A program made the translations under genes and the position numbers. This document shows, in pieces, positions 12,419 to 51,866 of a DNA stretch of 64,000 bases (its first letter is position 1; each line of letters begins with the position of its first letter). The notes below the pieces were generated by a model that was not told the origin of the DNA, searched no databases, and worked only from the letters and a program-made list of their open reading frames with translations. The DNA is taken from the NCBI RefSeq assembly GCF_051903065.1, contig NZ_CP178438.1; one strand, given 5' to 3'. This DNA comes from Escherichia coli. GTDB taxonomy: Bacteria > Pseudomonadota > Gammaproteobacteria > Enterobacterales > Enterobacteriaceae.

Positions 12419-12527
12419 TATACTCTAGATAATTCAAGTCGCAGCACATGCAACTTGAAGTATGACGAGTATAGCTTTATTAAAGGGGGAAGCGGTTTTC
12501 CCCCTTAGATGCGTTTCAATTTGCCCG

Positions 12528-12617
12528 TTACTTCAACAAATCAATCAACCGTAACAGAGCCACTAATAACTCCAGTACGGCAATGAGCACGATTAACTTT
12601 TGTGTCAGCGTGTCCAT
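12528..12617 (-). CDS. zorO: Type I toxin, 29-aa hydrophobic peptide MDTLTQKLIVLIAVLELLVALLRLIDLLK
   Basis: Hand translation of the minus strand: ATG at 12617-12615 preceded by AAGGAG Shine-Dalgarno, stop TAA at 12530-12528; matches the ZorO/ZorP peptide as I recall it; assignment of O versus P to copy 1 versus copy 2 is arbitrary. Confidence 0.75.
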   Translation of the reverse strand: MDTLTQKLIVLIAVLELLVALLRLIDLLK

Positions 12618-12798
12618 CCGCTCTCCTTATTAAGGAGCGCAACACCAGCACCTTACCCTTACACTGCCTGTCGATACTGGTTTACGTATGTTGGTACGAA
12701 ACGTTGCTCTCCGGATCAGGGCACCGCCTGCGGCACCACCCGTCCAGCAGCCAGGACTTAAAATTGGTCCGATCCGGCACAACCTCCCAACGGGCAGG

Positions 12799-12826
12799 AT
12801 TATAAATCTCATTCACTGAATTGCAA
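12799..12826 (-). promoter_or_regulatory. Predicted sigma70 promoter for the toxin mRNA (gives a 5' UTR of about 174 nt)
   Basis: Minus-strand -10 TATAAT (plus 12799-12804) and -35 TTGCAA (12821-12826) with 16-bp spacer; TSS predicted near 12791. Confidence 0.5.
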
Positions 12827-12849
12827 TGGAGTGTGGATATGGTTATAAT
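12821..12849 (+). promoter_or_regulatory. Predicted sigma70 promoter for the antitoxin sRNA
   Basis: -35 TTGCAA (12821-12826), 17-bp spacer, -10 TATAAT (12844-12849). Confidence 0.6.
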
Positions 12850-12855
12850 TTATTC

Positions 12856-12938
12856 GTTGGTACGAAATGTTGCACAATCAGCAAGTTAGCGTCACTGTAG
12901 TAAATAAAAGAACCTGCCTCACCAGCAGGTTTTTTTAT
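12856..12938 (+). ncRNA. orzO: Antitoxin small RNA (OrzO-like), about 80 nt
   Basis: Bounded by the consensus promoter and an intrinsic terminator; nt 12856-12873 (GTTGGTACGAAATGTTGC) can pair over 18 nt (one G-U) with the toxin 5' UTR encoded at 12689-12706. Confidence 0.7.
12912..12937 (+). terminator. Intrinsic terminator of the antitoxin sRNA
   Basis: Stem ACCTGC / GCAGGT, loop CTCACCA, followed by TTTTTTT. Confidence 0.75.
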
Positions 12939-13135: not shown

Positions 13136-13225
13136 TTACTTCAACAAATCAATCAACCGTAACAGAGCTACTAATAGCTCCAGTACGGCAATGAGCACGG
13201 TTAACTTTTGTGTCAGCGTGTCCAT
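13136..13225 (-). CDS. zorP: Type I toxin, 29-aa hydrophobic peptide MDTLTQKLTVLIAVLELLVALLRLIDLLK
   Basis: Hand translation; ATG at 13225-13223, stop at 13138-13136; differs from copy 1 by one residue (T9 versus I9). Confidence 0.75.
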   Translation of the reverse strand: MDTLTQKLTVLIAVLELLVALLRLIDLLK

Positions 13226-13406
13226 CCGCTCTCCTTATTAAGGAGCGCAACACCAGCACCTTACCCTTACACTGCCTGTCGATACTGGTTTACGTATGTT
13301 GGACCACGATGTTGCACTCCGGATCAGGGCACCACCTGCAGCACCACCCGTCCGGTAGCCAGGACTTGAAATAGGTTCGATCCGGCGCAACGTCCCAACG
13401 GTCTGG

Positions 13407-13434
13407 ATTATAAATCTCATTATCTTAATTGCAA
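13407..13434 (-). promoter_or_regulatory. Predicted sigma70 promoter for the second toxin mRNA
   Basis: Same architecture as copy 1: minus-strand -10 TATAAT (plus 13407-13412), -35 TTGCAA (13429-13434). Confidence 0.5.
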
Positions 13435-13457
13435 CGGGGTCCAGCCGTGGTTATAAT
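13429..13457 (+). promoter_or_regulatory. Predicted sigma70 promoter for the second antitoxin sRNA
   Basis: -35 TTGCAA (13429-13434), 17-bp spacer, -10 TATAAT (13452-13457). Confidence 0.6.
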
Positions 13458-13463
13458 TCGTTC

Positions 13464-13546
13464 GTTGGAACACGATGTTGCACAGGCTGTGGTGTTAGGC
13501 CTGAAAATAGTAAATAAAAGAACCTGCCTCACCAGCAGGTTTTTTT
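13464..13546 (+). ncRNA. orzP: Antitoxin small RNA (OrzP-like), about 80 nt
   Basis: Promoter plus terminator; 13464-13483 (GTTGGAACACGATGTTGCAC) is complementary to the UTR segment encoded at 13298-13317 with one mismatch. Confidence 0.7.
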
Positions 13547-13547
13547 A
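13522..13547 (+). terminator. Intrinsic terminator of the second antitoxin sRNA
   Basis: Stem ACCTGC / GCAGGT followed by TTTTTTT. Confidence 0.75.
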
Positions 13548-13657
13548 TTTACTATGATCTGCTTTCCAGATATTTTTTGCTCAAACAACTAATGCGCCAA
13601 ACATTTATTGCGCGTAAAATATCGTTTATTTCATTAATACATTTCAGGGATGAATAT

Positions 13658-14746
13658 ATGTCACCGCAGAATAATCATCTGCAGCGTCCGCCTGCTGCTG
13701 TGTTATACGCCGATGAACTGGCAAAATTAAAACAAAATGATACCGCACCTTGCCCGCCCGGTTGGCAGTTAAGTTTGCCTGCGGCCCGTGCTTTTATCCT
13801 TGGCGATAGCGCGCAAAATATTAGCCGTAAAGTGGTGATTAGTCCCTCCGCTGTCGAACGTATGTTAGTCACTCTTGCCACCGGACGCGGTTTGATGTTG
13901 GTGGGGGAACCTGGCACCGCAAAATCTCTCCTGTCTGAATTACTGGCAACCGCTATTAGCGGCGATGCCGGGTTAACCATCCAGGGCGGTGCATCTACTA
14001 CCGAAGATCAAATCAAGTACGGCTGGAACTACGCCCTGCTTATCAATCATGGTCCATCAACGGAAGCGCTGGTCCCTGCCCCGCTTTACCAGGGAATGCG
14101 CGACGGCAAAATCGTCCGTTTTGAAGAGATAACGCGTACACCGCTGGAAGTGCAAGACTGTCTGTTAGGTATGCTTTCTGACAGGGTGATGACGGTGCCG
14201 GAACTCACTGGTGAAGCCAGTCAGCTCTATGCGCGAGAAGGCTTTAATATTATTGCCACTGCCAATACCCGCGATCGCGGCGTCAATGAAATGAGTGCTG
14301 CGCTAAAGCGTCGCTTCGATTTTGAAACTGTCTTTCCGATTATGGATTTCGCCCAGGAGCTGGAGCTTGTCGCCAGTGCTTCGGCGCGTTTGCTGGCCCA
14401 TAGCGGTATTCCGCATAAAGTGCCTGACGCGGTACTGGAGTTACTGGTCCGCACTTTCCGCGATCTGCGTGCCAACGGCGAAAAGAAAACGTCAATGGAT
14501 ACACTAACAGCGATTATGTCCACCGCTGAAGCCGTGAACGTGGCCCACGCTGTGGGCGTCCGCGCCTGGTTTTTGGCGAATCGCGCAGGTGAGCCAGCCG
14601 ATCTGGTGGACTGTATTGCCGGAACCATCGTTAAAGATAACGAAGAAGATCGCGCTCGTCTGCGCCGTTACTTCGAACAGCGTGTCGCCACACATAAAGA
14701 AGCTCACTGGCAGGCTTATTATCAAGCCCGCCACCGCCTGCCGTGA
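13658..14746 (+). CDS. yehL: MoxR-family AAA+ ATPase (362 aa)
   Basis: Walker A GEPGTAKS; start chosen at MSPQNNH within tracked ORF 13577..14746. Confidence 0.85.
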   Translation: MSPQNNHLQRPPAAVLYADELAKLKQNDTAPCPPGWQLSLPAARAFILGDSAQNISRKVVISPSAVERMLVTLATGRGLMLVGEPGTAKSLLSELLATAISGDAGLTIQGGASTTEDQIKYGWNYALLINHGPSTEALVPAPLYQGMRDGKIVRFEEITRTPLEVQDCLLGMLSDRVMTVPELTGEASQLYAREGFNIIATANTRDRGVNEMSAALKRRFDFETVFPIMDFAQELELVASASARLLAHSGIPHKVPDAVLELLVRTFRDLRANGEKKTSMDTLTAIMSTAEAVNVAHAVGVRAWFLANRAGEPADLVDCIAGTIVKDNEEDRARLRRYFEQRVATHKEAHWQAYYQARHRLP

Positions 14747-33979: not shown

Positions 33980-34152
33980 GATGAGCATTCAGATAGTGGT
34001 TCACGCGCACGGGTTGCGCACCGCCGGAGTAAGGATTTACTGAGGCTAGCGACGCCATCATAACGAGCAAAAAGTGCGATCGTCAAAGGAGAATCGTGTG
34101 GAAATGCTGCATTGCTGACATTTATGCCAGCAATGCAACGTCAAAGAACTTT

Positions 34153-51689: not shown

Positions 51690-51866
51690 GCATCCGGCAT
51701 TTGGCACCGATTGCCGGATGCGGCTTGAACGCCTTATCCGGCCTACAAAACCATACAAATCAGTATGTTGAGCTCATTGTAGGCCGGATAAAACGCGCCA
51801 GCGTTGCATCCGGCATTTGGCTCCTGTCGCCGGATGCGGCGTGAACGCCTTATCCGGCCTACAAAA
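51690..51866. repeat. Cluster of REP elements (BIME)
   Basis: Repeated GCCGGATGCGGC...GCCTTATCCGGCCTACA units in alternating orientation between preA and mglC. Confidence 0.8.

Follow-up and report, generated by a model that had tools for sequence, protein, structure and literature searches.

The region between positions 12476 and 13580 of the analysed stretch of Escherichia coli DNA (64,000 nucleotides of contig NZ_CP178438.1, hereafter the window) is, as judged from its sequence, the tandem type I toxin-antitoxin locus zorO-orzO/zorP-orzP. [quoted passage not shown] In the proposed mechanism, each copy would encode a 29-aa membrane toxin on the minus strand, expressed from an mRNA with a 174-nt 5′ UTR, and a divergent sRNA of ~80 nt on the plus strand, whose first 18-20 nt would pair with positions +83/85 to +102 of the toxin UTR; this pairing would block translation and trigger RNase III-dependent decay. 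The variable core, essentially the V1 triplet (+9 to +11) plus position +6, would have changed jointly in the sRNA and the UTR of each copy, so that OrzO would recognise zorO and OrzP would recognise zorP. Several components of this scheme have been shown experimentally, namely the repression of zorO by OrzO and not by OrzP, the V1 swap, the involvement of RNase III and the translation block; that OrzP represses zorP, and that OrzO does not, is what the nucleotide sequences and the thermodynamic models would predict.

The interval is filled by two tandem copies of a module of ~608 bp, with 94% identity between copies 1 and 2 over their first 300 nt and 95% identity over the 73-nt sRNA-terminator stretch. 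According to the annotation of identical and near-identical genomes, the locus lies between yehK and yehL. The locus stretch was found to be 100% identical to that of E. coli 23CRST027, at the same yehK-yehL site, and 98.6% identical to that of an O157-like cattle strain in which all four pairing segments are conserved without change; the RefSeq annotation of the yehK-yehL gap is empty in these two genomes. Both sRNAs were matched over the full model (positions 1-76) by Rfam family RF02083 (OrzO-P), for which membership was set at a covariance-model score of at least the curated gathering score of 60 bits. The sequence features expected of zor-orz systems were all present: a 29-aa hydrophobic Zor toxin ORF on the minus strand of each copy, an sRNA gene divergent from the toxin gene and with its 5′ end complementary to the toxin 5′ UTR, TTGCAA/TATAAT promoters for both genes, and the yehK-yehL location. 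The RF02083 matches, the ORFs, the location and the identity with the O157-like strain together identify the region as the zorO-orzO/zorP-orzP locus of Fozo and colleagues.

Sub-threshold matches retrieved from the region under lenient Rfam conditions (STnc370, Thr and Trp leaders, isrH, CrcZ) were discarded, as they are explained by the terminator hairpins. Elsewhere in the window, Rfam scores above the gathering score were obtained for naRNA4/CssrE (51782-51859, minus strand, 85.8 bits) and for the Peptidase-S11 cis-regulatory RNA (33984-34064, minus strand, 72.8 bits). The left edge of the zor-orz array is formed by the 56 nt directly downstream of yehK (12425-12480). This segment, with a hairpin (TTCAAGT...ACTTGAA), is a dispersed repeat that occurs at 5 places in the median E. 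coli genome and only once in the window. The genes zorO, orzO and zorP are missing from the yehK-yehL gap of E. coli K-12 MG1655, aligned to window positions 13360-13660. What is left there is an intact orzP, whose promoter, pairing region and terminator match copy 2 exactly, together with the first ~30 nt of the zorP UTR. This orphan antitoxin of K-12 is OrzPmg (PMC11264685).

The list of open reading frames contained the 29-aa zorO toxin ORF (12528..12617, minus strand; MDTLTQKLIVLIAVLELLVALLRLIDLLK) and the 29-aa zorP toxin ORF (13136..13225, minus strand). Compared with the published ZorO sequence (MDTLTQKLTVLIAVLELLVALLRLIDLLK; PMC6669753), the copy-1 toxin is a T9I variant (codon 9, window position 12592) and the copy-2 toxin is identical letter for letter; the latter does not have the T3S substitution (codon 3, position 13219; strain 143 alignment) that is carried by EDL933 ZorP (PMC11264685). 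The toxin details are swapped relative to EDL933, with ZorO T9I in copy 1 and canonical ZorO in copy 2. A search of NCBIfam with both 29-aa peptides gave zero curated family matches, a null result that is due to a missing model and does not count against the zor identity.

The 5′ UTR of zorO extends over 174 nt (12618..12791, minus strand), with +1 at 12791, located 7 nt downstream of the -10 box in the -10/-35 scan. UTR length, position of the ribosome binding site (RBS) and processing by removal of 28 nt (delta-28) were taken from PMC5397157, and the published UTR length and RBS map exactly onto the window sequence. On the minus strand, this mapping places the RBS (AAGGAG) at 12623-12628 (+164..+169) and the first 28 nt of the mRNA, removed by processing, at 12764-12791. 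For zorP, a 174-nt 5′ UTR (13226..13399, minus strand, +1 at 13399) was assigned by homology from the two-copy alignment and the promoter scan. The scan placed a TTGCAA -35 element on both strands at 12821..12826 (zorO/orzO, palindromic, 10/12 matches on each strand) and at 13429..13434 (zorP/orzP), with TATAAT -10 boxes 16 and 17 nt away, one on either side, at 12799-12804 (zorO, minus), 12844-12849 (orzO, plus), 13407-13412 (zorP, minus) and 13452-13457 (orzP, plus); the same hexamers are also given in Table 3 of PMC11264685. In each module one palindromic TTGCAA is common to the divergent toxin and antitoxin promoters, and two RNA polymerases would therefore compete for one hexamer.

The start of OrzO was placed from the V1 numbering of PMC3919570 and the position of the -10 box. 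This sRNA of ~81 nt (12856..12936, plus strand) matched RF02083 at 12863-12936 with 88.8 bits, and comprises the pairing region +1..+18 (GTTGGTACGAAATGTTGC, 12856-12873), the V1 specificity triplet GAA (12864-12866) and a terminator hairpin (12908-12936), all on the plus strand; with +1 at 12856, V1 falls at +9..+11, the positions it has in the published numbering. OrzP, of ~83 nt (13464..13546, plus strand), matched RF02083 at 13471-13546 with 99.9 bits; on the same strand, its pairing region +1..+20 (GTTGGAACACGATGTTGCAC) lies at 13464-13483 and its V1 triplet, ACG as defined in PMC3919570, at 13472-13474.

The targets of both sRNAs were located on the minus strand as direct repeats of the sRNA segments. 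The OrzO target in the zorO mRNA (+85..+102) corresponds to 12690..12707 (GTTGGTACGAAACGTTGC), an assignment based on the direct repeat, duplex prediction and the EAP region of PMC5397157, and the OrzP target in the zorP mRNA (+83..+102) to 13298..13317 (GTTGGACCACGATGTTGCAC). The original prediction had placed the copy-1 UTR segment at 12689-12706, off by one; its coordinates for the other three segments (12856-12873, 13464-13483 and 13298-13317) were exact. The sRNA and UTR segments are direct repeats 166 nt apart on opposite transcription units. With the toxin mRNA encoded on the minus strand, such direct DNA repeats become complementary as RNA. OrzO +1..+18 pairs with zorO +102..+85 in 18 bp with one G.U, as had been proposed from the sequence, and this G.U falls at sRNA position +13 (window 12868/12702). 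OrzP +1..+20 pairs with zorP +102..+83 at 19/20 positions (-32.7 kcal/mol), the exception being an A.G mismatch at sRNA +7 (window 13470/13304), and even with this mismatch the duplex still reaches the published minimum of 17 discontinuous pairs. The repeat identity of 17/18 in copy 1 is far above chance, the best of 5000 UTR shuffles reaching 13/18. The OrzO site lies 61 nt upstream of the RBS at +164, and members of the family are characterised by 18-19 nt of complementarity ~60 nt upstream of the toxin RBS. It also forms the 3′ end of the published EAP region (+73..+102), where protection was observed in lead probing (PMC5397157).

The arrangement of these segments as direct DNA repeats 166 nt apart, together with the extension of the similarity a few bases upstream of the sRNA start (CGTWYGTTGG), could also be read as a sign that the 18-20 nt repeats act at the DNA level, for instance as protein-binding or recombination sites. 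This reading is hardly tenable, given that pairing at the RNA level has been documented by compensatory mutations, chimeras with 18 nt of OrzO, lead-probing protection and inhibition of translation in vitro (PMC3919570, PMC5397157); the published compensatory-mutation and in vitro data already refute it.

The 5′ end of the toxin mRNA, GUUGG, consists of the same five bases as the sRNA start (12787-12791 vs 12690-12694 in copy 1, 13395-13399 vs 13298-13302 in copy 2). Folding of the full-length mRNA predicts pairing of these five bases with CCAAC (+98..+102) and of positions +9..+13 with +85..+89. By this prediction the toxin mRNA would cover the constant flanks of the sRNA site with its own 5′ end for as long as the first 28 nt are in place, which fits the published closing of the EAP region.

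Pairing between sRNA and UTR was then set against the divergence of the two copies, which differ in 58 of 497 aligned columns. Eleven of these differences are inside the two 20-nt pairing segments and 47 are elsewhere, and thus the claim that the copies differ in the pairing segment alone did not hold: the sRNA middle (12876-12897) differs in 16/24 columns (67%), the orz promoter spacer in 9/28, and the distal UTR and zor promoter by 9-17%. Within the pairing core (+6..+13), 10 of 16 columns differ (hypergeometric P ~1e-6). These data indicate that the pairing core is one divergence hot spot among several. The sRNA middle (+21..+46) was considered as a second cognate-specific recognition site and rejected, as it gave zero diagonal preference in a 3x3 matrix; this null result agrees with the finding, obtained with chimeric sRNAs, that the first 18 nt of OrzO suffice (PMC3919570). 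By its sequence, the sRNA middle appears to behave as a weakly constrained spacer that has no cognate-specific UTR complementarity.

To compare the four sRNA-mRNA combinations, interactions were evaluated as thermodynamic-model energies (all in kcal/mol) by three procedures: the short-site duplex energy, the same energy with opening energies added, and RNAcofold on the full-length and delta-28 mRNAs. RNAduplex on full-length molecules, which ignores intramolecular structure, was dropped because it returned meaningless long duplexes. The predicted short-site, full-length cofold and delta-28 cofold energies were -31.3, -17.0 and -23.9 for OrzO:zorO, and -32.7, -17.8 and -24.5 for OrzP:zorP; the corresponding values for the cross pairs were -23.1, -11.9 and -14.4 for OrzO:zorP, and -18.9, -5.7 and -10.2 for OrzP:zorO. 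Once opening energies were included, the cognate short-site values fell between -16 and -20 and the non-cognate ones between -4 and -11. The cognate pairs were therefore strongest in both short-site duplexes and RNAcofold, as anticipated in the original prediction, being lower than non-cognate pairs by 8-14 kcal/mol in the short duplex and by 5-14 kcal/mol in the cofold. In register, OrzP:zorO pairs at 15/18 positions, and OrzO:zorP forms 9 contiguous plus 5 bp with four mismatches; the latter is the less disfavoured of the two cross pairs by both duplex and cofold. The proposal that each antitoxin RNA should repress only its own toxin fits these predictions and, for the direction of OrzP on zorO, agrees also with experiment (PMC3919570).

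Published experiments bear directly on this specificity. For zorO of EDL933, overexpression is toxic, OrzO represses the toxin gene and rescues the cells, and OrzP does not (Wen, Won & Fozo, PMC3919570). Changing V1 of OrzO from GAA to ACG abolished repression, the reciprocal change of V1 in OrzP from ACG to GAA conferred repression of zorO, and compensatory mutations in zorO restored it (PMC3919570). The 15/18 pairs of OrzP:zorO were insufficient for repression in that study, exactly the figure obtained here, and the requirement has been formulated as 15 continuous pairs or 17 discontinuous pairs with one mismatch (PMC3919570, PMC11264685). With regard to mechanism, the full-length zorO UTR sequesters the RBS and the EAP region, and once the first 28 nt are gone, the EAP region, which is a putative ribosome standby site, becomes accessible and translation rises (PMC5397157). 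[quoted passage not shown] The specificity interpretation is already known, from experiment in 2013 (PMC3919570) and from a survey of E. coli in 2024, which put forward that variability of the pairing segment may prevent crosstalk (PMC11264685); the share of modules with pairing potential is given there as 99.8%.

Natural variation was examined in other strains and species. The sRNA cores of eleven E. coli loci fall into four types (O, P, Q and a Q variant) and the UTR cores into three, and sRNA and UTR cores change together in all eleven. The modules occur in the combinations O+P, Q+P, Q+O, single P and single Q variant, and the Q-type pairs, with co-changed sRNA and UTR cores, were identified in strains CI5, A_5 and RM14721 and in the APEC and FDAARGOS strains. 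In the matrix of 4 sRNAs by 3 UTRs, predicted energies ranged from -31 to -33 kcal/mol on the diagonal and from -16 to -27 kcal/mol off it. A scan of GTDB genomes (one per species) for an exact 22-mer of the orz terminator, a search that can miss diverged homologues, returned three non-coli Escherichia genomes: E. whittamii with O+P, Escherichia sp. E1V33 with O and Escherichia sp. MOD1-EC7003 with P, so that zor-orz modules are present in named non-coli Escherichia species. Between orthologues from these three genomes the pairing segments differ at 0 of 160 positions and the whole locus at 87 of 1843; between paralogs, 11 of 40 columns of the pairing segments differ. Divergence between paralogs combined with complete conservation between orthologues is what a specificity determinant would be expected to show.

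The abundance of differences outside the pairing segments (47/58), with a sRNA middle that has diverged even more, would also be accounted for if the differences in the pairing segments were neutral drift after duplication and had not been selected for specificity. We consider this explanation very improbable. The changes in sRNA and UTR are coordinated in each of the four types, drift in one partner alone would de-repress the toxin, and the pairing segments show no change between species vs ~4.7% for the rest of the locus; the sRNA middle, on the contrary, varies at 2-3 of 22 positions between orthologues, as for a weakly constrained spacer.

A further alternative is that orthogonality is partial or one-directional, with OrzO keeping some ability to repress zorP, or some Q-type sRNAs repressing it, and the two modules then incompletely insulated. 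In the model energies OrzO:zorP is only moderately disfavoured (-23.1 vs -18.9 kcal/mol for OrzP:zorO; cofold -11.9/-14.4 vs -5.7/-10.2), and one-way leakage is possible for this reason; in addition, the OrzQ2 sRNA (APEC type) pairs with zorP at 18/20 positions with -26.8 kcal/mol. The cross-test in PMC3919570 covers the direction of OrzP on zorO only, and no published test of OrzP or OrzO on zorP, or of reciprocal cross-talk, was found in the searchable literature. However, the four in-register mismatches of OrzO:zorP leave a longest run of 9 bp, far under the published pairing requirement, and one mismatched base at the first V1 position is enough to abolish repression of zorO (PMC3919570). 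On balance, we regard partial orthogonality as unlikely, and insulation of both modules remains the preferred reading.

Each cognate pair retains one imperfection in the duplex. To the G.U of the O type and the A.G of the P type are added an A.A mismatch at sRNA +7 in the Q type and a G.A at +7 in the Q variant, and E. whittamii and the two other Escherichia species show the same imperfections in the O and P types. These imperfections could tune duplex strength or RNase III cleavage; their conservation may be meaningless or may reflect such tuning of the interaction. That they are selected features rather than accidents is doubtful, as is an asymmetric orthogonality with OrzO partly active on zorP.

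The locus represents a textbook-style case of duplicated RNA-regulated toxin modules insulated by a few co-varying nucleotides. Beyond the confirmation of published work, the significance of this analysis is small: it adds supporting details, namely further co-varying Q-type pairs and O and P segments frozen across Escherichia, along with OrzO on zorP as the predicted leakier direction.

The closest known system is the zorO-orzO/zorP-orzP locus of E. coli O157:H7 EDL933 (Fozo et al. 2010; Wen, Won & Fozo, PMC3919570; Wen, Harp & Fozo, PMC5397157; PMC11264685), which is the same locus, with the same yehK-yehL site, gene order and promoters. The pairing segments of sRNAs and UTRs are identical to those described here, including V1 GAA vs ACG, as are the UTR length and the position of the target within the EAP region; the differences amount to strain-level polymorphism only, with ~1.4% scattered substitutions. 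Among other type I systems, tisB, shoB and dinQ share with zor-orz the divergent toxin and sRNA genes and a long toxin 5′ UTR activated by 5′ processing (PMC5397157), along with an sRNA that binds through its 5′ end to a (putative) standby site located far upstream of the RBS. They differ in that PMC5397157 does not describe them as tandem copies with diverged specificity cores, and the full-length zorO mRNA is still translatable, whereas that of tisB is not (PMC5397157). Their toxins and sRNA sequences are unrelated to those of zor-orz.

In the ibs-Sib systems of E. coli, short variable recognition sequences allow each antitoxin to tell its own toxin mRNA from the others. Like zor-orz, ibs-Sib comprises several paralogous toxin/antisense pairs per genome (in part from PMC3919570). 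Each Sib RNA is a cis-antisense RNA with full overlap and two recognition domains, whereas the Orz sRNAs are trans-encoded from a divergent gene and carry a single recognition domain of 18-20 nt (PMC3919570).
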